A model generated the notes under the pieces. It was given only the letters and a program-made list of their open reading frames with translations. It ran no database searches and was not told where the DNA came from. Position numbers and translations under genes: made by a program. From NCBI GenBank assembly GCA_043819795.1, contig JBDREN010000197.1, positions 1 to 47,187 on the forward strand: a stretch of 47,187 bases of DNA, in the 5' to 3' direction. Of this stretch, positions 34,314-47,071 are shown piece after piece; position 1 is the stretch's first letter; every line of letters starts with the position of its first letter. The DNA comes from Elusimicrobiota bacterium. GTDB taxonomy: Bacteria; Elusimicrobiota; Elusimicrobia; UBA1565.

Positions 34314-36371
34314 TCAGTCGAGCCGGCCGTCGTCGGCCCAGTCCTCCATCACGCTGATCGAGCAGCCGAACTTGCGGTGGCCCTTCATCGCCTCCGAGGA
34401 GGCGGCCAGTATCTGCTCGCAGCTGCATCCGTGGGTGTCGGCCGTGGTGAAGGTATTCCTGGGCCCCTTGCCCTTGGACGCCGTGGTGTCGAACACGTAG
34501 GCGCCGGCCTCGCGCGTCCCGGTCACGATCGCGAAGCGGTTGGTGCCCAGCCTCACGCCCGGCACGGAGGCCTCCGGGGCCTCGGTGTCGCGGCATCGGT
34601 CCTGGCAATACGCTACCCCGTCATCGTCGAGATCCGAGTCGTCCGGCGTCTGGGCGCTGCAGTCGTCGTCCACGCCGTTGCAGCGGGTCTCCGGCGCGCC
34701 GGGATTGACCTCCGGGGCGGCGTCATCGCAGTCGGTCGGCCCGCAGTCGCCGCCCTCCACGGCGTAGCCGTCGCCGTCGGCATCCGTGCAAGAGGCCTCG
34801 CAATAGCCCTCTCCAGCCAGACCCTTGGCGTACTGCTCCCCGATCTCCTCGGCGGTCAGAGCCCTCTTGTAGATCGCCACTTCATCGACAAGGCCTCTTG
34901 TGGGATAGTCGAAGGCGGACCGGATCCCGATGAACAGCCTCTTGTCGCTGTTGATGGACCCGGACGCGGTCTTCTGCATGATGGGCTGGCCGTTCAAGAA
35001 CATATGCAAGCCGTTTCCGCTTCTCACAAAGGCGATGTGATGCCAATCCCCCAAGGTGATCAAACGATACTGCGTCAGCCAACCGCTCGCCGTGCTGTAG
35101 AAATCCAGATTCTGGAGCGGAGCGAGTCCGCCGAATCCCAATGCCACCACCGGGACCGAACCCGGATCCCCTATGCTCAGGAGATACTGAGAATTGCCCG
35201 TATTCTCCACGTTCGCCCAGAGGCTTATCGTGAAGTCTCCGCCTCCGAGATCCCAGTCGCTGCTGGCCGGCGCGCTTACATAATCATTGCTGCCGTCGAA
35301 ACTCAGCGCGCCTCCGGCCCGCCCGGCCGGAGTCCAGACGGGCCCGTTGACCAGAGTCCCGCGATTCGCGGCGTAGGAATCATGCGCGGTCCCGCCCGAA
35401 GTCTCCTCGAAACGCCAATAGCTGGCCATGCCCGCCGGCGCGCCGGGATTGCCGCAGGCGTCGACGTCGTCCGGGCTCCCGTCGCCGTCCGCATCAGGGA
35501 AGCAGACGCTCGGCCTTCCCATGCAGCTGTGGCCGGGATCAAGGGCGCACGCGGCGGAGCACCCGTCTCCATCTAGGTTGTTCCAATCATCGCATTCTTC
35601 TCCCGCATCTACGGCGCGCGCCCCGTCGCCGCAGAAGGCCTCAATGATCTCGTCACAATAGCCCTGCCCGAGCCCTTCGCTGTAATGCCGGCGGATCTCC
35701 TCCGGCGTCAAAGCCCTCCTGTAGATCGCCACTTCGTCGATAAGGCCTTTTGTGGGATAATCAAGAGCGGACCTGATCCCGATGAACAGCCTCTTATTGC
35801 TGTTGATGACGCCGGTTCCGGTCTTCTGCATGATAGGCTGGCCGTTCAAGAACATATAGAAGTCGTTTCCATCCCGCACAAAAGCGATGTGATGCCATTC
35901 CCCTAAGGCAATCACGCGATACTCTGTCATCCAACCGCTTGCCGTGCTGAAAAAATCCAGATTCTGGAGCGGAGCGAGTCCGCCGAAACCCAATGCCACC
36001 ACCGGGACCGACCCCGGGTCTCCTATGCTCAGAAGATATTGAGAATTCCCCGAATTCTCTATCTTCGCCCAGAGATCGATCGTAAAATCCCCGTCTCCGA
36101 AATCCCAGTCGCCGCTGGCAGGCACACTGACATAAGCTTTGCCCCCGGGGAAGTCCAGCGCGCCTCCGACCCGCCCGGCCGTCTCCCAGACGGGCCCATT
36201 CACCAAAGTCCCGTCGTTCGCGTCAAAATCATCGTTCCCGGGATTCGATGGATCATCGAAAGTCCAATAGGAAACCGTGCCAGGAGGACATGCCTCCGTT
36301 TCCTGCGCCAAGGCGCCTCTGACGAACGCCAAGGAACTTGCCAGTATCACTCCCGCGAATATTCTTGTCAT
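34314..36371 (-). CDS. Secreted protein: two LamG-like jellyrolls, Cys-rich DUF4215-like and MopE-like repeats, C-terminal GCSC domain
   Basis: Signal peptide; SYWTFD...WHHIAFVR...IDEVAIY.RALT twice (852-bp period); CGDG...EECDD; DCDD...NPGA...CNGVDDDC. Confidence 0.85.
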   Translation of the reverse strand: MTRIFAGVILASSLAFVRGALAQETEACPPGTVSYWTFDDPSNPGNDDFDANDGTLVNGPVWETAGRVGGALDFPGGKAYVSVPASGDWDFGDGDFTIDLWAKIENSGNSQYLLSIGDPGSVPVVALGFGGLAPLQNLDFFSTASGWMTEYRVIALGEWHHIAFVRDGNDFYMFLNGQPIMQKTGTGVINSNKRLFIGIRSALDYPTKGLIDEVAIYRRALTPEEIRRHYSEGLGQGYCDEIIEAFCGDGARAVDAGEECDDWNNLDGDGCSAACALDPGHSCMGRPSVCFPDADGDGSPDDVDACGNPGAPAGMASYWRFEETSGGTAHDSYAANRGTLVNGPVWTPAGRAGGALSFDGSNDYVSAPASSDWDLGGGDFTISLWANVENTGNSQYLLSIGDPGSVPVVALGFGGLAPLQNLDFYSTASGWLTQYRLITLGDWHHIAFVRSGNGLHMFLNGQPIMQKTASGSINSDKRLFIGIRSAFDYPTRGLVDEVAIYKRALTAEEIGEQYAKGLAGEGYCEASCTDADGDGYAVEGGDCGPTDCDDAAPEVNPGAPETRCNGVDDDCSAQTPDDSDLDDDGVAYCQDRCRDTEAPEASVPGVRLGTNRFAIVTGTREAGAYVFDTTASKGKGPRNTFTTADTHGCSCEQILAASSEAMKGHRKFGCSISVMEDWADDGRLD

Positions 36372-36729
36372 ACCCTCTCCTTCCCGTTCCCGGAATCACG
36401 CCGTCGCGCGACCGATCCGCGTTTGTATCCCCAACCACAGTATAACACGGCCGGCGAATCCCAGCCAGCCGTCGGAAGCTACCGCGCGGACCGCAGGCCC
36501 GCCGGGTCACCTGGAGACTGCCGCACTCCGGAGAGCGATAACAAGGCTCCGCTTTCCCGCTGACTCATCAACAAATGCTTTTTTGATAAGCACCATTTCC
36601 AGGGGATTGTCAGCGCTTGTCCTTGATTTGCCAGAGGAATGGGGTTATATCATTGCTAAGGCTGGCAGGCGGGCGGGCCTTGACGCATCGGTGCCCTGTC
36701 GGGGCGTGGCCGCGCGGAGGATTAAGGAA

Positions 36730-39700
36730 ATGAGAATAATATTGTCTGGACTCATACTGGGGAGTTGCCTGCCTTTTGCCGGAGGCGCGCTGGCGCAAGA
36801 AACATGTCCTTCCGGCATGGTCTCGTACTGGACATTCGACGATTCCCTGGATCCCGGGAACGACGATTTTGGCGCGAACGACGGGACTTTGCTCAATGGC
36901 CCTGTCTGGACCTCCGGCCGGGTCGGGGGGGCCTTGGGTTTTGACGGCGTGGACGACTATGTCTATGTGCCCGACAGCGACGACTGGGATTTCGGCGCCG
37001 GCGATTTCGCGGTCGAATTCTGGACACGACTTCGCAGTCTTTCAGGATGGCGCATCTTTATGGATATCGGAGGCCATGATGTCGGCATCCGGATCAACTA
37101 TTTCGGCAACAATCTGGAAGTATATGTGGCGCACGGGTCCGGCCAGAATTTCAATTTCCCATGGTCCCCGTCGCTGAATACCTGGTATCACCTCGCCGTC
37201 ATAAGGAACGGGAATGCTTTTGAAGCGTATGTGGACGGCTCTCAGATCGGCAGCACTCAAGATGTCACCGGAAAGGACATAACGGGACTCACCCGCGGCG
37301 TCGGGATCGGAGAGGCGGTCAAGTCCACCGCGCATCTCAACGGGGACCTCGACGAAGTCGCGATCTACAACAGGGCGCTGACCCCGGAAGAGATCTCGCA
37401 GCACGTCGATGACGGCCTGGCCGGCAAGGGGTATTGCGAGGCCTATGTCCCCTGCGGCGACGGCGTCATCGACGCGGGCGAGGAATGCGACGACGGCGAT
37501 CGGGCGGACGGGGACGGCTGCTCCGCGGCTTGCGCGGTGGAGGACGGCCACGTGTGCCATGGAGAACCCAGCACCTGCTGGCCCGACCTGGACGGTGACG
37601 GCTGGCCGGACCTGCGGAATCTGGTGTCCAACCCCGGTTTCGAGCTGGACGAAAACGACGACGGTTGGGTCGACGAATGGTACCTTGCCGGAATAGACCG
37701 CGAGGCGGCTCACGGCGGGGCCGCTTCGGGCCGGCGCGAGACCGGATCCTATACGTGGCAGTATGTGCCCATCAACGGCCGCGTGCACGGGTTCACCTTC
37801 GGGGGCTGGAACAAGCTCGACAAGCAGTCCGAGACCCAGTATCAGCCCACGATGCACGTGGTCGTCTACTACGAAGACGGGACATCCGCCGGCTCCAGCA
37901 AGGGCGCCCGGTTCGATCGGGAGACCCACGATTGGACGCTGAGCATGGACTACATCGACACCGACGAGACCAAGCTCATGACCACCGCGCTGATCAGGTT
38001 GTGGTGGCAAGGGGACGGCACCACCTGGTTCGACGACGTATTCCTCGTCCCGTCCCGGTGCCTGACCTTGGACGGCGATTGCTGCGGCAACGGCGTCCTC
38101 GACGCGCAGGAGGCGTGCGACGACGGGAACAGAGACGGCGGCGAGGGCTGCTCCGCGGCCTGCGCGGTCGAGCCGGGCTACGGCTGCGCGGGCGAGCCGA
38201 GCATATGCGCTCCCAACCTCGACGGCGACGACATGCCGGATCTGGCGAACCTGCTGAGAAATCCAGGCTTCGAGACCGACGAGGACTACTACGGCTTGGT
38301 CGACGAATGGTACCTTACCGGGATAGACCGCGGGGAGGCTCACGGCGGGGCCGCTTCGGGCCGGCGCGAGACCGGATCCTATACGTGGCAGTATGTGCCC
38401 ATCAACGGCCGCGTGCACGGGTTCACCTTCGGGGGATGGAACAGGCTGGACAAGCATTCCGACACCGGGAAACAGCCCCAGATCTCGGGGGTGGTCTACT
38501 ACGAGGACGGGACGTACCACGGCTTCGGCGACGTGGTCCGCTTCGGCGCCGACACCCACGACTGGACGTTCGGTTCGGCCTATTTCGACACGGACGAGAC
38601 CAAGCTCATGACCACCGCGCTGGTCAGGCTCTGGTGGCAGGGCGACGGCACGACGTGGTTCGACGACGTTTTTCTGGTCGCCAGCTCATGCGTGGACCTG
38701 GACGGCGACGGCCATAAGGGGACACCGGCCGGGTGCGGGCCGGACTGCGACGACTTGGACCCGGGCGTGAGCCCGGGGGCGGGCGACGCGGATTGCGACG
38801 GGCTGGACCAGGACTGCGACGGCACCGCGGACGACGATTATGTCGCGGCCCCCACGTCCTGCGGGGTGGGCGCCTGCGCCTCGACCGGCGAGTCCGCGTG
38901 CGTGAACGGACAAGAGACCGACACCTGCGCGGAGAACGCCCCTCGACCCGAAACCTGCGACGGCCTGGACAACGACTGCGACGGGACCGCGGATGACGGG
39001 GGCGACGCCCTGTGCACCGACGGGCTCTGGTGCACCGGAACCGAGACCTGCGCCGGGGTCTCAGGCTGTCAGCCCGGAATGCCTCCGGTCTGCGCCGACG
39101 CCCTGTCCTGCACCGTTGACAGCTGCGACGAGGACGCGGACGCCTGCGCCTACACGCCGATAGACGAGGACGGCGACGGCTCCGACATCTGCGACGGGCC
39201 CGGTCAGGACTGCGACGACGGCAATCCCGACGCCTATCCGGGCGCCGAGGAGCGGTGCAACGGGTTCGACGATGACTGCGACGGGCAGACCGACGAGGGC
39301 TGCGACGACGACGGTGACGGGATCCTGAACGCCGCCGACAACTGTCCGGACGCCTACAACCCGGACCAGTTGGACACCGACGCGCAGGGTGGAGGAGACG
39401 TCTGCGACATCTGTCCGAACGATCCTGCGGATGCCTGCGATCCCGGCGGCTCCGCGGGCGAGTACGTGGAGGCGGCCGAAGGCGGCGAGGTGGCCGCTCC
39501 GTCCGGGAGCGCCTCGTTCGCGGTCCCGGCCGGGGCCCTCGACGCCGACACGAGCATGGCAATCACGGAGAGCACCCCCGCGGATCCGAACATCGAGATC
39601 GGCTCGAACAAGGGGCAATCCCTGTCGCAATACTCCTTCACGCCGGCCGGGACGACCTTCAACGAGCCCGTCACGGTGACGCTGGTGACGGAATGCACGC

Positions 39701-40164
39701 TCAAGCCCAGGCTGTGCGACAAGCTCAGGATCATGGTGAAGGGCACCGGCGCGGGGGCTTGGGAGGCGCTGCCCACGACCTGCACCACCGCGGGCACGAC
39801 CTACACCTGCACCGCACAGACCACGCACTTCAGCCTGTTCGCGGCCGCGGGACCGACCGACGAGGACGAAGACGGCATCGCCGACAGCTGGTTCGGGGAG
39901 CTGGACAAATGCGGCGGCGGCGTGCCCGGGGGCAACCCGTGGTACGCCGACGGCGGATTGAAGCCCAACCATTACGACAGCGGCAACTGGAGCCTGGAGG
40001 ACGCCTACGGCTGCAGCTGCGCCCAGGTCCTGTTCTGCAAGCCCGGGGAGAACGCCGGCGAGCTCAAGCACGGCTGCTCGGCCGGCACCAAGAGCACGTG
40101 GGAGGCGCAGGCCCCCGAGTCCTGGGCCCCGAAGTGCCAAGCGGACGGGATCGTGGCCCCGTAG
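36730..40164 (+). CDS. Secreted multidomain protein: LamG, DUF4215-like repeats, two CBM4/9-like domains, MopE/TSP3-like repeats, ZU5-like domain, C-terminal GCSC domain
   Basis: AAGGA RBS and signal peptide at 36730; NL..NPGFE...WFDDVFL twice (630-bp period); CDGLDNDCDG; DNCPDAYNPDQLDTD; VPAGAL...FTPAGTTFNEPV...TTHFSLFA. Confidence 0.85.
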   Translation: MRIILSGLILGSCLPFAGGALAQETCPSGMVSYWTFDDSLDPGNDDFGANDGTLLNGPVWTSGRVGGALGFDGVDDYVYVPDSDDWDFGAGDFAVEFWTRLRSLSGWRIFMDIGGHDVGIRINYFGNNLEVYVAHGSGQNFNFPWSPSLNTWYHLAVIRNGNAFEAYVDGSQIGSTQDVTGKDITGLTRGVGIGEAVKSTAHLNGDLDEVAIYNRALTPEEISQHVDDGLAGKGYCEAYVPCGDGVIDAGEECDDGDRADGDGCSAACAVEDGHVCHGEPSTCWPDLDGDGWPDLRNLVSNPGFELDENDDGWVDEWYLAGIDREAAHGGAASGRRETGSYTWQYVPINGRVHGFTFGGWNKLDKQSETQYQPTMHVVVYYEDGTSAGSSKGARFDRETHDWTLSMDYIDTDETKLMTTALIRLWWQGDGTTWFDDVFLVPSRCLTLDGDCCGNGVLDAQEACDDGNRDGGEGCSAACAVEPGYGCAGEPSICAPNLDGDDMPDLANLLRNPGFETDEDYYGLVDEWYLTGIDRGEAHGGAASGRRETGSYTWQYVPINGRVHGFTFGGWNRLDKHSDTGKQPQISGVVYYEDGTYHGFGDVVRFGADTHDWTFGSAYFDTDETKLMTTALVRLWWQGDGTTWFDDVFLVASSCVDLDGDGHKGTPAGCGPDCDDLDPGVSPGAGDADCDGLDQDCDGTADDDYVAAPTSCGVGACASTGESACVNGQETDTCAENAPRPETCDGLDNDCDGTADDGGDALCTDGLWCTGTETCAGVSGCQPGMPPVCADALSCTVDSCDEDADACAYTPIDEDGDGSDICDGPGQDCDDGNPDAYPGAEERCNGFDDDCDGQTDEGCDDDGDGILNAADNCPDAYNPDQLDTDAQGGGDVCDICPNDPADACDPGGSAGEYVEAAEGGEVAAPSGSASFAVPAGALDADTSMAITESTPADPNIEIGSNKGQSLSQYSFTPAGTTFNEPVTVTLVTECTLKPRLCDKLRIMVKGTGAGAWEALPTTCTTAGTTYTCTAQTTHFSLFAAAGPTDEDEDGIADSWFGELDKCGGGVPGGNPWYADGGLKPNHYDSGNWSLEDAYGCSCAQVLFCKPGENAGELKHGCSAGTKSTWEAQAPESWAPKCQADGIVAP

Positions 40165-40202
40165 GCGCGGATCCGGCAAATCGAGTCAGGGTGGGTGGAA
40201 AG

Positions 40203-43200
40203 ATGAGCAAGAACATGAAGCCGGTGGTTCCGATATTCTTGGCATCCGTTTCGGCGGCGGCTTTGGCTCTCCTGCCGCTCCATGCGCGGGCCCAATGTCC
40301 GAGCGGCGGGGGGATGGTCAGCTATTGGACCTTCGACGCGGGAGACGCGACCGACGATCACGACGCCAATGACGGCGCCGTTCACGGCGCCACGGCCGCG
40401 CAAGGCAGGACCGGCCAGGCGTTCCATTTCGACGGGGAGGACGACTATATCGAGGTCCCGCACGCGACGAGCCTGAACCTGGCCGGCCCCGAGCCGGTGT
40501 ATGACTACGTCGAGGTCCCCCATTCCCCGAGCCTGGACCTAGCCGGCCCCGAGCCGGTGCATGACTACGTCGAGGTCCCCCATTCCCCGAGCCTGGACCT
40601 GGCCGGCGGGCAGTTCACTTTCGAGACGTGGATCAAGATAAGGGGGTACGCGGGCGATTTCCGGACCATCATCGGAAAGATCGGCTGGACCGATACGAGC
40701 CTGTGGAGCTACAACTTCCAGGTCAGGTCCGACGGGGGCTTGTACGTCGACTTCGTCAACACCGGCGGCACCCGGTTCCCGTTGAGCAGCCACACCGAGT
40801 CGCTTCGGACCGGGATATGGCATCATGTGGCGGCCACCTACGACGGAGGCATGCTGCGCTTGTACATCGACGGCGACGAGGTGGCCTCCCGGGAGGCCTA
40901 CGGCGTCCCGAGGGCGAACGACTATCCGCTCTCCATCGGGCGATGGTGGTCCGACGACCCCAACCAGTTCCAGGGCATGATCGACGAGGCGGCGGTCTAC
41001 GACAGGGCGCTGGCCGCCTCGGAGGTCCTGAGCCACTACGAGGCCGGCTCGGCCGGCTATTGCGTCGGTGGCTGTCCCGCGGGAATGGTGAGCCATTGGA
41101 GCTTCGACGAGGCGGACGGGGCTACCGCTTACGACTCCATTGGCGTCAACGACGGGACCATATATGGAGCGGTCCGCGCGGCCGGCAAAGTGAACGGCGC
41201 GCTGGACCTCCCGGGGAGGCAGTTCACGTTCGAGGCGTGGATCGACATAAGGGGTTACGCGGGCGATTTCCGGACCATCATCGGGAAGATCGGCTGGACC
41301 GACACGAGCCAGTGGAGCTACAACTTCCAGGTCAGGCCCGACGGCGGCCTGTACGCTGACTTCGTGAACGGCGCCGGCACCCGGTTCCCGTTGAGCAGCC
41401 ACACCGAGTCGCTTCGGACCGACGTCTGGCAGCATGTGGCGGCCACCTACGACGGCGGCATGCTGCGCCTGTATATCGACGGAGCCGAGGTGGCCGCCCG
41501 GGAGGCCTACGGCGACCCCAGGCCGAACGAGTATCCGCTCTCCATCGGGAGATGGTGGTCGGACGACCCCAACCAGTTCCAGGGCATGATCGATGAGGCG
41601 GCGGTCTACTCCAGGGCGCTGGCCGCCTCGGAGGTCCTGAGCCACTACGAGGCGGGTGCGGCCGGCTATTGCGACGGCGGTTGCCCGGCGGGGATGGTGA
41701 GCTACTGGAGGTTCGACGAGGCGGGCGGAGCGACCGCTCACGACTCCGTCGGCGGCAACGACGGGACCGTCCATGGGGCGGTCCGGACGGCCAGTAAGGC
41801 GAACGGCGCGCTGGACCTCCCGGGCAGGCAGTTCGCCCTCGAAGCTTGGATCAACGTAAAGGAGTACGCCGGCGACTACGGGGCGATCGTCGGGAAGATC
41901 GGGTGGAGCGATACGAGCCAGTGGAGCTACAACATGCACGTCAGGTCCGACGGCGGCCTGCACGCCAGCTTCGTGAACGCGAACGGCACCCAGTTCCCGC
42001 TGAGCAGTCCCTCCGACTTGATCCAGGCCGGCGCTTGGCACCATGTGGCGGCCGCCTACGACGGCGCCATGCTGCGCATGTACATCGACGGCGCCGAGGT
42101 GGCGGCCCGGGAGGCTTATGGCGACCCGAGGCCGAACGAGTATCCGCTCTCCATCGGGAGATGGCATTCGGGCGATCCCAACTGGTTCTCCGGGGCCATC
42201 GACGACGTGGCGCTCCACAGCAGGGCGTTGACGCCCGCCGAGATCCGGGAGCATCACGACAAGGGCTCGCTCAGCAAGGGCTATTGCTGGGCCTGCGCCG
42301 CCGACGCCGAGTGCGACGACGGCAACCCCTGCACGAAGGACCTGTGCGCCGGCGGGACCTGCGTCGCGGACCCGGCGGCGATGAACGGCGCCCCGTGCGA
42401 CGACGGGACGCTCTGCACGGCCGGGGATATCTGCGCCAACGGGTCGTGCGCGGGCGCGGCCGTGCCCGGCGCCGAGGGCCTGCGGAGCTACTGGACCTTC
42501 GACGCGGGGGACGCGGCCGACGTCTACGGCGGCAATGACGGGACCGTCCACGGCGCCGCGGGCGCGCAGGGCAGGACCGGCCAGGCCTTCTCCTTCGACG
42601 GAGAGGACGATTATATCGAGGTGCCTCACGCGGCGGACCTGAACCTCGGGGGGCCCGAGGCCGTGGCCGACCGCGTCGAGGTGCCGCATGCCCCGAGCCT
42701 GGACCTGGGCGGCCCCGAGCCGGTGAGCGACTACGTGGAGGTGCCGTATTCCCCGAGCCTGGACCTGGGCGGCCCCGAGCCGGTGAACGACTACGTCGAG
42801 GTGCCGCATGCCCCGAGCCTGGACCTGGCCGGAGGGCAGTTCACCCTCGAGGCATGGGTCAACGTGCGGGCGTACGCCGGGGATTTCCGAACGATCATGG
42901 CGAAGATGGGCTGGACCCATACGACCGGGTGGAGCTACAACATGCGGGTCAGGGACAATGGCGGCCTGTACGTTGACTTCGTCAACGACAACGGCACTCG
43001 ATTCCCATTGAGCAGTCCCGCCGGCCTGCTACAGACCGGTGTTTGGCACCACGTGGCGGCCGCCTACGACGGCGGCATGCTGCGCTTGTACGTCGACGGC
43101 GCGGAGGCGGCGTCCCGGGAGGCCTACGGAAGCCTCAGGCAGAACGACTATCCGCTGTCCATCGGCAGGCTGCGATCGGGAGACCCGGACCAGTTCTTGG

Positions 43201-45794
43201 GCATGATCGACGAGGCGGCGGTCTACGACAGGGCGCTGGCCGCCCAAGAGGTCCAAAGCCACTACGCGGCCGGCTCGGCAGGCTACTGCACGGGGGGCTG
43301 CCCGGGGGGGATGGTGAGCCTTTGGAGCTTCGATGAGGGCGATGGATCCGTGGCGTACGACTCCATCGGCGGCAATCACGGCGCCATCTATGGGGCGAGC
43401 CGGAGCGCCGGCATGGTCAACGGCGCGCTGGACTTCCCGGGGGAGCAGTTCACCCTGGAAGCCTGGATCAACGTGAGGGGCTACGCGGGCGATTTCAGGA
43501 CGATCATGGCGAAGATGGGCTGGGACCATACGAGCTGGTGGAGCTACAACATGCAGGTCAGGGACAATGGCGGCTTGTACGCCGACTTCGTGAACGAGGC
43601 CGGCACTCGGTTCCCATTGAGCAGCCCCTCCGGCCTGCTCCAGATCGGCGCTTGGCACCACGTGGCGGCCGCCTACGACGGCGGCATGCTGCGCTTGTAC
43701 GTCGACGGCGCGGAGGCGGCGTCGCGGGAAGCTTACGGCAGCCCCAGGCCGAACGACTATCCGCTGTCCATCGGCAGGCTGAGGTCGGGGGACGCAAACC
43801 AGTTCTTGGGCAAGATCGACGAGGCGGCGGTCTACGACCGGGCGCTGGCCGCCGAAGAGGTACTGAGCCACTACGAGGCCGGTTCGGCCGGCTATTGCGA
43901 CGGCGGCTGCCCGGCGGGGATGGTGAGCCTTTGGAGCTTCGACGAGGGCGACGGAGCCGTCGTTTACGACTCCATCGGCGGCAACCACGGGACCGTTTCC
44001 GGGGCGGTGCGGACGAGCGGCATGGTCGGCGGCGCGCTCGACTTCCCGGGCAAGCAGTTCACCCTCGAATCGTGGATCAACGTGACGCGCTACGATGGCG
44101 ATGAGAGGACGATCCTGGCGAAGATGGGCTGGACCCATACGAGTTGGTGGAGCTACAACATGCAGGTCAGGTCCTATGGAGCCCTGTACGCCGACTTCTT
44201 CAACGAGAACGGAACGCGGTTCCCGTTGAGCAGCCCCTCCGGCTCGATCCGGACCGGCGCCTGGCAGCACGTGGCGGCCACCTACGACGGCGCCGTGCTG
44301 CGGCTCTACATAGACGGCGCCGAGGCGGCGTCCCGGGAGGCCTACGGGGACCTCAGGCGAAACGACTATCCCCTGTCCATCGGCAGGCTCAGGTCGGGAG
44401 ACCCCAACACGTTCTCCGGGTTGATCGACGAGGTGGCGGTCTACGACCGGGCTCTGGCCCCCGAGGAGCTCCTGAGCCACTACGAGGCCGGCGCGGCCGG
44501 CTACTGCGACGGAGGGTGCCCGGCGGGGATGGTGAGCCTCTGGAGCTTCGACGAGGGCGGCGGGGCGGCCGCGTACGACTCCGTCGGCGGCAATCACGGG
44601 ACGATCAGTGGAGCGGTCCGGACGGCCGGCATGGTGGGCGGCGCGCTGGATTTCCCGGGCAGGCAGTTCGCGATGGAGGCGTGGATCAATCCGGCGGAGT
44701 ACGCCGACGATTACAGGGCCATCATCGGCAAGGTCGGCTGGACCGATACGAGCCGCTGGAGCTACAACTTCCATGTCCGATACGACGGCGGCCTGCACGC
44801 CAACTTCGCCAACGACAACAACGCCACCTTCTCGCTGACCAGCGCCCCCGGCTCGATCCAGACCGGCGTCTGGCAGCATGTGGCGGCGACCTACGACCAC
44901 GGCATGCTGCGCCTCTACATCGACGGGGCCGAGGCCGCGTCCCGGGAGGCCTACGGCGGCCCCCGGCCGAGCGACTATCCCGTGTCCATCGGAAGATGGC
45001 AGTCGGCCGATCCCAACCCGTTCGCGGGCCTCATCGACGAGGCAGCGGTCTTCGGCAGGTCGTTGACGCCGGCCGAGGTCCAGAAGCATTACGACAAGGG
45101 CCTGATCGGCAAAGGCCTTTGCGAGGCGCTCTGCACGGACGCCGACGGCGACGGCTACGGCGCGGCCGGCAGCGATACCAGCGGCTGCGCCGAGCCCGGC
45201 TACGACTGCGACGACGGCGACGGCGCCGTCATCCCCGGCTCGATCATAGAGACGGACATCTACGGCTCGGGCGACATCGGAGAGTGCCGGACCCGGATCG
45301 AGGAATGCCTGGGCGCGTCCGGCGCTCTCCAGACCATCCGGGCCGCGGTCGGCCCGTCTGTCGAGGCCTGCGACGGCCTGGACAACGACTGCGACGCCGC
45401 GGCGGATGAGGACTTCCCGGATTTCGACGGCGACGCGGCGGCCGACTGCGTGGACCCGGACGACGACGGCGACGGGCTCGCGGACGAGGACGACGGCTGC
45501 CCGTACGAGAATCCCGGAGCCCAGGACGCGAACGGCGACGGCTGCGCCGACAGGCTGGAGGACGCCCCCCGGGTCGTCGAGGAGCTGAGCCTGCCCGGGG
45601 GAACGGCCAACGAGATCACCTCCAAGCTGGAGACCGCGATCGCGGCCCAGAATGAGGGGAAGACCGAGCCGGCGGTCAACAAGCTTCGCGCCCTCATCAA
45701 CAGCGTGCAGGCGCAGCGGGGCAAGAAGATCTCCGCCGAGGACGCGGACCTCCTCATCGAGTTCGCGAACAACGCGATAAGCGGGATGGAGTAG
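40203..45794 (+). CDS. Giant secreted protein (1863 aa) with seven LamG-like domains in nested/permuted order, Cys/Asp-rich repeats and a C-terminal FIMAH-like helical domain
   Basis: Signal peptide MSKNMKPVV...ARA; seven W.HVAA.YD cores; TSP3/MopE-like repeats; C-terminal SKLETAIAAQ...LRALINSVQAQRGKKISAEDADLLI. Confidence 0.88.
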   Translation: MSKNMKPVVPIFLASVSAAALALLPLHARAQCPSGGGMVSYWTFDAGDATDDHDANDGAVHGATAAQGRTGQAFHFDGEDDYIEVPHATSLNLAGPEPVYDYVEVPHSPSLDLAGPEPVHDYVEVPHSPSLDLAGGQFTFETWIKIRGYAGDFRTIIGKIGWTDTSLWSYNFQVRSDGGLYVDFVNTGGTRFPLSSHTESLRTGIWHHVAATYDGGMLRLYIDGDEVASREAYGVPRANDYPLSIGRWWSDDPNQFQGMIDEAAVYDRALAASEVLSHYEAGSAGYCVGGCPAGMVSHWSFDEADGATAYDSIGVNDGTIYGAVRAAGKVNGALDLPGRQFTFEAWIDIRGYAGDFRTIIGKIGWTDTSQWSYNFQVRPDGGLYADFVNGAGTRFPLSSHTESLRTDVWQHVAATYDGGMLRLYIDGAEVAAREAYGDPRPNEYPLSIGRWWSDDPNQFQGMIDEAAVYSRALAASEVLSHYEAGAAGYCDGGCPAGMVSYWRFDEAGGATAHDSVGGNDGTVHGAVRTASKANGALDLPGRQFALEAWINVKEYAGDYGAIVGKIGWSDTSQWSYNMHVRSDGGLHASFVNANGTQFPLSSPSDLIQAGAWHHVAAAYDGAMLRMYIDGAEVAAREAYGDPRPNEYPLSIGRWHSGDPNWFSGAIDDVALHSRALTPAEIREHHDKGSLSKGYCWACAADAECDDGNPCTKDLCAGGTCVADPAAMNGAPCDDGTLCTAGDICANGSCAGAAVPGAEGLRSYWTFDAGDAADVYGGNDGTVHGAAGAQGRTGQAFSFDGEDDYIEVPHAADLNLGGPEAVADRVEVPHAPSLDLGGPEPVSDYVEVPYSPSLDLGGPEPVNDYVEVPHAPSLDLAGGQFTLEAWVNVRAYAGDFRTIMAKMGWTHTTGWSYNMRVRDNGGLYVDFVNDNGTRFPLSSPAGLLQTGVWHHVAAAYDGGMLRLYVDGAEAASREAYGSLRQNDYPLSIGRLRSGDPDQFLGMIDEAAVYDRALAAQEVQSHYAAGSAGYCTGGCPGGMVSLWSFDEGDGSVAYDSIGGNHGAIYGASRSAGMVNGALDFPGEQFTLEAWINVRGYAGDFRTIMAKMGWDHTSWWSYNMQVRDNGGLYADFVNEAGTRFPLSSPSGLLQIGAWHHVAAAYDGGMLRLYVDGAEAASREAYGSPRPNDYPLSIGRLRSGDANQFLGKIDEAAVYDRALAAEEVLSHYEAGSAGYCDGGCPAGMVSLWSFDEGDGAVVYDSIGGNHGTVSGAVRTSGMVGGALDFPGKQFTLESWINVTRYDGDERTILAKMGWTHTSWWSYNMQVRSYGALYADFFNENGTRFPLSSPSGSIRTGAWQHVAATYDGAVLRLYIDGAEAASREAYGDLRRNDYPLSIGRLRSGDPNTFSGLIDEVAVYDRALAPEELLSHYEAGAAGYCDGGCPAGMVSLWSFDEGGGAAAYDSVGGNHGTISGAVRTAGMVGGALDFPGRQFAMEAWINPAEYADDYRAIIGKVGWTDTSRWSYNFHVRYDGGLHANFANDNNATFSLTSAPGSIQTGVWQHVAATYDHGMLRLYIDGAEAASREAYGGPRPSDYPVSIGRWQSADPNPFAGLIDEAAVFGRSLTPAEVQKHYDKGLIGKGLCEALCTDADGDGYGAAGSDTSGCAEPGYDCDDGDGAVIPGSIIETDIYGSGDIGECRTRIEECLGASGALQTIRAAVGPSVEACDGLDNDCDAAADEDFPDFDGDAAADCVDPDDDGDGLADEDDGCPYENPGAQDANGDGCADRLEDAPRVVEELSLPGGTANEITSKLETAIAAQNEGKTEPAVNKLRALINSVQAQRGKKISAEDADLLIEFANNAISGME
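40440..40610 (+). repeat. In-frame 60-bp tandem repeat x3 (DY[IV]EVPH..SL[DN]LAG)
   Basis: Lines 40441, 40501 and 40561 align column by column. Confidence 0.95.
40611..42287 (+). repeat. 609-bp period repeat, three LamG cores
   Basis: CAGTTC unit starts at 40611, 41220, 41829. Confidence 0.93.
42606..42836 (+). repeat. In-frame 60-bp tandem repeat x4
   Basis: Lines 42601, 42661, 42721 and 42781 align column by column. Confidence 0.95.
42837..45122 (+). repeat. 609-bp period repeat, four LamG cores
   Basis: CAGTTC unit starts at 42837, 43446, 44055, 44664. Confidence 0.93.
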
Positions 45795-45979
45795 GCCGCG
45801 CCTCCTGCCCGGCCTTACCGGAAATATGGTGCGGCCGACGTGTTCTCGCCGCACCTCGAGGAAGGCTTCGATACGAGGTTTGCGGCGCATCTTCGCTTAA
45901 ATCTACAATGATACCGTCCGAAGGCCGCAGGATCTCTGCCCGCCATTTCATCGAGCGGCCCGACGGGAAGGAGGCGGCG

Positions 45980-47071
45980 ATGATGAAGACTAGAAGGGCG
46001 GCATCCGCGCTCGGCGCGATCGGCTGCGTTGCGGCTGCTTTGGGTTTTGCCGCCATGACGGCGCGGCCAGCCGGGGCGCAGGCCGCGTGTCCGGACGGCA
46101 TGCTCCACTACTGGACGTTCGACGAGGGGACGATCGAAGGGAACACCGTCGAGGATGTGGCCGGAGGCAACGACGGCGCGATCACCGGGGCGATATCGAC
46201 CGCGGGGCGCGTGGGAGAGGCTTTGCGCTTCGACGGCAACGATTACGTGCTCTCGAACGGCGGCATCAACATATCGGGGAATCAGCCCAGGACCGTCGAA
46301 TACTGGGCTAAGACGAATCATCTCCTGTCGAGCGCGTCCCAGCCGATCCTCTGGTGGGGAGGGCTGTCCACCTCGCGCCTGAACCTGGTCACCTTCGGGC
46401 ATCAGCGCAAGACCACCTTCCCGACGGCGAACTTCTACGGCTACTACCGGGACGTGTCGGGCAGCGCCGAGGTCTTCGCCGACGAATGGACCCACGTGGC
46501 GGTGACGTACGACGGAAGCGATATCAGGATATACATCAACGGCGCTGCGGGCTCGCCGAGCCCGCAGCCGCTCGACACCGACGCGAGCACGTTGACCATC
46601 GGTCACTACCCCGGCTGGCCCAGCTACTACATAGGGGAAGTCGACGAGATAGCGGTCTACGACAGGGCTCTTACGGCGGAGGAGATCGAATTCCACTATC
46701 AGAGCGGCCTCATGGGATACGGATACTGCATGCCGGACACCGACGGCGACGGGATAGGCGACCACATCGACGCGTGCGCCGACACCCCTCCGGGGGAGGA
46801 GCTCGTCCGCGGATGCTCCGGCAGCCAGATGTCCGGGTGCGACGATGCGGACGGCGACGGCGTGGTGGACGACTCCGACGCCTGCCCGGGCACGGATCCG
46901 GAGCTGGAGCCGTACCTGCCCGTCGCGGAGGGCTGCTCCTGTTACCAGATCCTGGAGCTGAAGCCCGGCGCGGACAAGGGCGAGATGAAGAACGGCTGCT
47001 CCGACGGGACCTTGGGCGCCTTCTTGAACAGGACGGGCTGGGCCAAAGACATCCCGCGGCCGGGTCAATAA
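45980..47071 (+). CDS. Secreted LamG-domain protein with TSP3-like repeats and C-terminal GCSC domain
   Basis: AAGGAGG RBS before ATG 45980; signal peptide; CPDGMLHYWTFD...WTHVAVTYDG...VDEIAVYDRALT...GYC; DTDGDGIGD..DAC. Confidence 0.87.
   Translation: MMKTRRAASALGAIGCVAAALGFAAMTARPAGAQAACPDGMLHYWTFDEGTIEGNTVEDVAGGNDGAITGAISTAGRVGEALRFDGNDYVLSNGGINISGNQPRTVEYWAKTNHLLSSASQPILWWGGLSTSRLNLVTFGHQRKTTFPTANFYGYYRDVSGSAEVFADEWTHVAVTYDGSDIRIYINGAAGSPSPQPLDTDASTLTIGHYPGWPSYYIGEVDEIAVYDRALTAEEIEFHYQSGLMGYGYCMPDTDGDGIGDHIDACADTPPGEELVRGCSGSQMSGCDDADGDGVVDDSDACPGTDPELEPYLPVAEGCSCYQILELKPGADKGEMKNGCSDGTLGAFLNRTGWAKDIPRPGQ

Follow-up and report, generated by a model that had tools for sequence, protein, structure and literature searches.

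Segment order in the LamG gene and its paralogues

An ordinary domain of the Laminin_G_3 family (LamG3, PF13385) runs through three segments in the order A-B-C, and one gene from an Elusimicrobiota bacterium raises the question of how a protein can fold when its B strands are stacked behind the first A segment and the remaining A and C segments follow without them. The window analyzed here is the whole 47,187-bp stretch of contig JBDREN010000197.1 (GenBank assembly GCA_043819795.1), which is the entire contig C197 of the source genome G000 (4.99 Mb, 241 contigs, 90.3% complete, 1.14% contamination). The gene occupies positions 40203..45794 of the forward strand. It is a single open reading frame (ORF) spanning two segment blocks, with a likely ATG start at 40203 and a stop at 45794, and it encodes 1863 amino acids with seven LamG3 cores according to segment parsing and Pfam. 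With a probability of roughly 0.77, we read each block as recursive self-insertion, the inserted unit being a permuted B-C-A domain.

Block 1 (40296-42290) has the order A,B,B,B,C,A,C,A,C and block 2 (42477-45122) the order A,B,B,B,B,C,A,C,A,C,A,C; re-parsing returned the segments and coordinates that an initial annotation, made from the DNA sequence alone, had assigned. In block 1, the first A segment (40296..40439) is followed by a stack of three B strands with a 60-bp period (40440..40610), by C1, a GYC-xGG-CP link and A2 (40611..41219), by C2 and A3 with a B-less A-C junction at their start (41220..41828), and by C3, the last core (41829..42290). Block 2 consists of its first A segment (42477..42605), a stack of four B strands (42606..42836), three (C,A) units (42837..44663, with C at 42837, A at 43299, C at 43446, A at 43908, C at 44055, and A at 44517), and its last core (44664..45122). 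Tandem Repeats Finder (TRF) measured the 60-bp B arrays at 2.8 and 3.6 copies. Pfam scored PF13385 at 683 bits over seven stretches against a cut-off of 27.6, and the gene product matched the LamG clan and small repeat families only. The contiguous A-B-C order of the family is not kept, as five of the seven cores come directly after an A segment, at a spacing of 5, and two come after a B stack.

Junction spacing was counted from the F of ALxF, which ends segment A, to the first position of C, and the count took A hits of at least 12 bits that reached the end of the profile and had a C-start motif within 130 amino acids. The source genome contains 99 such junctions: 16 at spacing 5, all in three genes (the gene described here and two paralogues), six at 56–82, and 77 at 17–25. 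The six long values (56, 62, 73, 73, 76, and 82) are the spacings over the B stacks that follow the first A segments. As the initial annotation had noticed for this gene, the inner A segments run straight into C (16/16 at spacing 5 over the three genes, short by about one B unit), and an ordinary B-C junction is present at the last B only. The length missing at the inner junctions equals the length stacked at the front of the block; for the 17-residue period found in the paralogues, the spacing sums are exact (56 + 5 + 5 = 3 × 22 and 73 + 15 = 4 × 22). Among 1171 junctions in 410 other ORFs or proteins, none was shorter than 17. The usual distance between A end and C start was 17–32 residues (1159 junctions), and a motif scan of the 12 junctions above 33 revealed no stacked B. 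Separately, ORF L060:3-2867 has one LamG domain with an A-to-C spacing of 48 residues, which may hold a partly duplicated hairpin and showed no B stack by motif scan.

The paralogues lie on two other contigs of the same genome. The first, on C140 (G000:C140:46145-52378; L001:6146-12379), encodes 2077 amino acids with blocks of 4B/4C and 4B/4C; the second, on C80 (G000:C80:1477-7962; L002), encodes 2161 amino acids with blocks of 3B/3C and 4B/4C. The three genes are 59–62% identical and the paralogues have their own linkers. The 20-residue B period is particular to the gene at 40203..45794, and the period of the paralogues is mostly 17 residues. The equality of B and core counts proposed for this gene extends to all six blocks of the three genes (3, 4; 4, 4; 3, 4), and the pieces sum to whole domains in 6/6 blocks when these are read as nested. 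Depth varies among the first blocks of the three genes (3, 4, and 3), and therefore at least one coupled change must have taken place. By our own arithmetic, shuffling the six counts reproduces the match in 1 of 15 cases, and the blocks are kin, so the equality of counts is by itself modest evidence. The strong signal is instead the B-less junction, which occurs nowhere else among the junctions compared.

The stacked B strands are under purifying selection. Uncorrected pairwise values of nonsynonymous and synonymous differences (pN/pS) in the B cores were 0.10/0.53, 0.14/0.67, and 0.16/0.54, and pN was well below pS in the C segments as well. Measured against 1670 ordinary B strands, 21 of 22 B cores also scored higher than the 67th percentile. 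These values bear on an account in which each block holds one properly folded domain, the extra B strands being slippage repeats and the B-less units degenerate. Such an account could draw on the ease with which short tandem repeats expand, on the 1-in-15 chance of the count match, and on the occurrence of the genes in a single known genome. It conflicts with the open frames of three paralogues diverged to this extent, with the selection on both segment types, with B cores that score like functional strands, and with counts that change together, and we regard it as very improbable.

An assembly artefact is unlikely because the gene contains no exact repeat of at least 80 bp and the same novel junctions occur on three separate contigs. 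Short contigs of sequencing run X1, possibly the source sample, match the gene exactly, and one of 151 bases crosses B2/B3 and B3/C1 with zero mismatches; no listed X1 piece crosses an A-C junction under a 31-base rule, and gene parts without read-contig cover are uninformative. A mis-assembled ordinary tandem LamG array might still be suspected, as the contigs are metagenome-assembled with one record each and no listed public contig crosses the whole gene or an A-C junction. However, the novel junction sequence stands in each gene beside gene-specific linkers, and together with the exact short contig across B2/B3/C1 and the absence of long exact repeats this leaves mis-assembly scarcely credible.

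Pairing of the segments and origin of the blocks

In the proposed architecture, the outermost LamG3 domain of a block would consist of A1, B1, and the last C, and a permuted B-C-A domain would sit in its B/C loop. The permutation would have opened the domain in a hairpin, at the turn from strand ALxF to strand YVEVP, with the native ends joined by GYC-xGG-CP. Each next permuted domain would go into the same loop of the preceding one, to 3 or 4 levels, giving an innermost domain of last B-C1-A2, shells of B-[insert]-C-A, and an outermost domain of A1-B1-[insert]-last C. For block 1, this would make B3, C1, and A2 the innermost domain, B2, C2, and A3 the middle one, and A1, B1, and C3 the outermost one. 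The chain would run outward via the B strands and back via the C-A units, and a pair of short links, located at opposite ends of each domain, would connect adjacent domains. The tip would be the innermost domain, the sole contiguous one. Both ends of the block would lie on the outermost domain, and a block would therefore branch from a short backbone as a side arm. The initial annotation had pictured a stalk: its course of the chain is kept here, whereas the stalk in series gives way to a side arm, which need not be a straight rod.

Coevolution across 1693 ordinary domains indicates that B is a paired core strand contacting a late C strand and A. The partner of the last A strand is the C strand at columns 189-193; the last A strand also comes close to column 83, which is nine residues away from the C start on an extended strand. 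The two terminal cysteines are coupled. The register was tested because the motif ALD[LF] is similar to the motif xLx[LP], both of which occur at the junctions. The inner A ends favored the strand profile in 16/16 cases (12 by 3.3 bits and 4 by 0.6 bits), the non-last B ends matched the loop profile in 15/16, and four non-last B copies of the C140 paralogue have Pro at the buried-Phe position. In coarse C-alpha models, the end of A lies 21–28 Å (about 25 Å) from the start of C, and the five peptide steps of the 4-residue link reach at most 19 Å; the alternative register would leave 13–24 Å to span in one step. The same models place B entry and exit 18–25 Å apart and the end of A 5–12 Å from the start of B, so that the termini of an inserted domain would be close to each other.

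These distances tell against the alternative raised in the initial annotation, long-range donor-strand complementation, in which linear A-C domains would each be completed by a B strand, or a hairpin, that the N-terminal stack supplies. This arrangement would explain the 1:1 count and the selection on B equally well. The inner A ends (ALD[LF]) are also good as the loop before C (7.4–7.7 bits), and the second C80 block prefers it in the Potts score described below. In the coarse models, however, linear A-C domains fail because the gap is too wide for the short link in either register. The B units are only 6–9 steps apart, so that all domains would have to meet at a single hub, and a B-less A-C junction was found in none of the 1171 other junctions. 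We therefore consider donor-strand complementation within the chain improbable.

A rigid-body scan was performed on all 36 pairings of three-domain blocks, with four starts each and two linker lengths. It excluded 18 of the 36, including all those with an inner A and the following C in one domain, and ranked the nested pairing first at both linker lengths. Six of the 18 surviving pairings were refined and two were feasible: one cyclic swap and the nested pairing, the latter with near-zero violation in 3 and 4 of 14 starts. The nested solutions had end-to-end centre distances of 40–68 Å, and a straight rod would be possible in these models and is not required by them.

The cyclic swap is the main rival to the nested pairing. 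It would use all B strands in a non-nested intrachain domain swap (A1+B1+C2, A2+B2+C3, and A3+B3+C1 for three domains) and yield a compact cluster. It was the sole other pairing of the six refined to come near zero violation, and the inner segments are 71–91% alike, which makes swapped partners chemically plausible and might allow them to coexist with the nested form. On the other hand, every C would be parted from the A to which the short GYC-xGG-CP link joins it, the solution was found less often than the nested one, and a stand-alone relative in protein L035 (see below) is read as one B-C-A unit. Distance matrices and trees also agree better with A1 paired to the last C, and we give the swap a small but appreciable chance.

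In the pooled segment distance matrices, the correlation between A and C was 0.62 for the nested pairing versus 0.20 for pairing in order, and that between B and C was 0.42 versus −0.21. The trees group cores by gene, pair last cores across blocks in two of three genes (both last C segments of this gene at 87/82, unstarred), and unite five of six first A segments in one clade. Sequence history thus weakly favors the nested pairing. The initial annotation had described the first A, first B, and last C as closest to their counterparts in the other block. This is the case for the first A (70% amino acid identity versus 41–50%) and the first B (80% versus 53–75%). For the last C, the 64% between blocks exceeds the likeness of the last C of block 2 to inner copies (58–62%), but not that of the last C of block 1 (62–66%).

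A single crossover between the A end and the B end, at their similar LxF/LxL motifs, could have produced the second level, and the inner A ends and B ends have in common a DNA motif of about 8 bases that fits the expected crossover site. Further levels would be gained in one step through offset gene conversion, where the inner B...C is replaced by the longer B..B..C-A-C, adding one B and one C-A together. The distances within block 1 (0.03 for B2/B3 and 0.09 for C1/C2) are consistent with a recent coupled duplication, and a permutant should be viable because the L035 relative is already permuted and colinear as B-C-A. We tentatively suggest a self-propagating, centre-embedded architecture, in which one offset gene conversion adds a whole level once a permuted LamG domain occupies its own B/C loop. 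Jointly with this, arm length would be tunable with the B stack as an exact counter, folding would proceed from the tip inwards once the chain is complete, and the arm would be a two-stranded, possibly disulfide-closed lectin arm bearing no main-chain load. This combined proposal is possible rather than probable. If true, it would represent a route to branched multivalent adhesins, of which we found no description.

Several points weigh against the nested pairing. The layout is found in one genome only, and a search of sequencing runs returned a single run with the gene (0.22 of words) and listed no RNA run. The geometry comes from a coarse C-alpha model built on predicted contacts and our own strand assignment, the enumeration of pairings covered three-domain blocks and left out four-domain blocks, and the cyclic swap also reached near-zero violation in 1 and 2 of 14 starts. 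The p-values of the distance matrices (0.005 and 0.043) ignore kinship and array edge effects, which inflate correlations. The Potts pairing score placed nested above linear in 5, 4, and 3 of six blocks at three settings, with low power (control 38–46/63), and it preferred linear for the second C80 block at all three. The inner C copies of that block are near-identical and its B copies are not, showing that homogenisation is not always coupled. Overall, the nested model agrees better than its rivals with the testable evidence taken as a whole. The B-less junctions, selection, register, coarse geometry, and distance matrices make it the best-supported form of the insertion first proposed, with the reservation that one swapped pairing fits the geometry too.

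Protein context, neighborhood, and distribution

The protein begins with a signal-peptide-like N-terminus recognized by eye (40203..40295; basic start, hydrophobic stretch, and A-x-A). A Cys-rich spacer (42291..42476) with a weak Dictyostelium-repeat match below the cut-off (E value, 0.0012) separates the two blocks. The C-terminal region (45123..45791), which has 70% identity to the C140 paralogue, contains acidic Cys/DxDxDG repeats with a weak MopE-type match and a FIMAH domain (approximately 45576-45779). The C80 paralogue ends in thrombospondin type 3 repeats in place of FIMAH. We infer secretion, as we do the pairing and the arm shape, and the product would be branched and multivalent, binding surfaces through two arms, one displaying three similar binding domains and the other four. 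Its ligands may be glycans or surface proteins, going by LamG family membership only.

The three neighboring genes contain ordinary A-B-C units, as the initial annotation had stated. Two LamG3 domains are encoded at 34314..36371 on the reverse strand, and one each on the forward strand at 36730..40164, which ends 38 bp before the gene, and at 45980..47071, both with inferred starts. Four LamG genes thus form a cluster at 34314-47071; their products look secreted and have Cys-rich and acidic repeats. The G + C content is approximately 60% at 35–38 kb versus approximately 68% elsewhere. LamG domains are expanded throughout the source genome, with hits in 66 ORFs, including an open frame of more than 30 kb on contig C15 with 12 hits. 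Relatives of the same family have far fewer LamG candidates (3–58 versus 194). The C140 paralogue is flanked at L001:14589-18001 (reverse strand) and L001:1603-4182 (forward strand) by a leucyl-tRNA-synthetase-like ORF and pilus-assembly-like ORFs, the latter identified by eye as PilC/PilT/PilB from their first residues. Promoters and terminators were counted about as often as chance predicts.

The gene product has an exact match in the protein collection (P0121), a singleton at the 90% cluster level. Protein searches covering 382-1218 aa and 1024-3261 aa revealed no outside nested layout among the approximately 8000 candidates scored, and the best outside match of the latter search was 41% over a short stretch. 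A search covering 138-441 aa gave no outside nested layout either, its best outside matches being at most 36%. Among the best 150 hits of a profile search of 50% representatives, parsing found no nested layout, although relatives more than 50% identical may sit in the gene's own cluster. The genome contig scan detected no nested layout outside the source genome, and the metagenome contig scan none among the matches listed. Likewise, the layout was seen in 0/40 genomes of relatives, 0/100 of the order, 0/392 of the class, and 0/400 of the phylum, in overlapping sets with few candidates scored per genome. The ESM Atlas has no model of the protein and returned only ordinary LamG3 clusters. A token scan had suggested inserted or two-level arrangements in P0147, P0185, P0170, and P0240, and a closer parse showed these to be ordinary tandem arrays.

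If the nested pairing is true, the six blocks, 3 or 4 levels deep and made of young, alignable copies, would document recursive self-insertion in a natural series of unusual clarity, from one genome and with a topology drawn from sequence and coarse models. The origin of multi-level nesting would become directly testable, as would the folding order and the choice of partner among near-identical competing strands. Pfam-style annotation, which lists seven LamG domains in a row, would be masking the real topology, and the arrangement could serve as a design template for branched or two-stranded multidomain proteins.

Comparison with known systems

With seven cores far above the Pfam cut-off, the gene product clearly belongs with the Laminin_G_3/ConA-like domains of PF13385, whereas ordinary members run A-B-C. 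The nearest solved sequences are 4QVS, 5HON (arabinanase), and a pappalysin LamG domain, which are weak PDB matches (E values, 1e-5 to 1e-9). The 3649-residue protein L035:1648-12594 contains several stand-alone permuted LamG domains, with strand SLxLDG first and segment A last. One of them is the closest outside relative found; it aligns with the putative innermost domain of block 1 (B3, C1, and A2) colinearly as B-C-A, at 48% over 182 residues. It shares the core subfamily and the B-C-A order, but is opened one strand earlier (it starts at SLxLDG), is single, and has other domains on both sides.

Insertion of one LamG domain into another is seen in six unrelated tandem-LamG proteins (P0135, P0140, P0174, P0181, P0205, and P0268), where, as read from their sequences, a whole A-B-C or permuted domain lies within another LamG domain. 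In contrast to the gene described here, the site is a loop inside segment A, there is one level, and no B is stacked. Most of these proteins have an N-terminal hydrophobic anchor, and self-insertion has an independent origin in them.

In chaperone-usher pili and, as parts of PMC11821415 describe, haloarchaeal Taf fimbriae, donor-strand complementation likewise completes a beta-sandwich with a strand from elsewhere in the sequence, but there one subunit donates to another and the fold is Ig-like. With the TafC model NF052521, the score was 299 bits against a cut-off of 410 and the match covered profile positions 149-366 only, the LamG part, so the gene product is not a member. The donor strands and tandem adhesin domains in the relevant parts of PMC11821415 and PMC10619420 do not match the nested layout.

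The initial annotation knew of no multi-level self-nested lectin rod, and no nested LamG protein turned up in our literature searches among the records and excerpts returned. This part of the claim stands for LamG proteins, whereas multi-level self-nesting as such occurs in Si3 of the cyanobacterial RNA polymerase β′ subunit and single-level LamG-in-LamG insertion occurs in the proteins above. As to related folds, we take the domain group numbered 10.1.1 to be the ConA-like group. In the 30 of 281 places for group 10.1.1 from the tables of PMC13114784, five 10.1-in-10.1 events lie side by side in one host and none is nested; the remaining 10.1.1 rows may bear on novelty. The main text of that article makes no mention of laminin, lectin, or concanavalin.

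Si3 provides the closest parallel. Its six-level recursive domain insertion is reported in sections of PMC13114784, and its sandwich-barrel hybrid motifs SBHM-2 to -5 are built from distant sequence regions and form a 150-Å arm, according to passages of PMC10895346. Under the nested reading of the LamG blocks, both systems have homologous domains nested over several levels into an elongated arm. Si3 differs in its fold, its cytoplasmic location, and its branching nodes, and the LamG protein has segments in the regular order A,Bn,(C,A)n-1,C, young near-identical copies, a presumably secreted product, and outgoing strands laid down as a tandem repeat. No sandwich-barrel hybrid motif was found among the families matched, which were the LamG clan and small repeats. 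The gene product is therefore not a member of the Si3 group, although under the nested reading it would work like a Si3 array. The principle of multi-level self-nesting and that of LamG-in-LamG insertion are thus already known, and what would be new here is the LamG fold combined with a regular, strand-counting layout.
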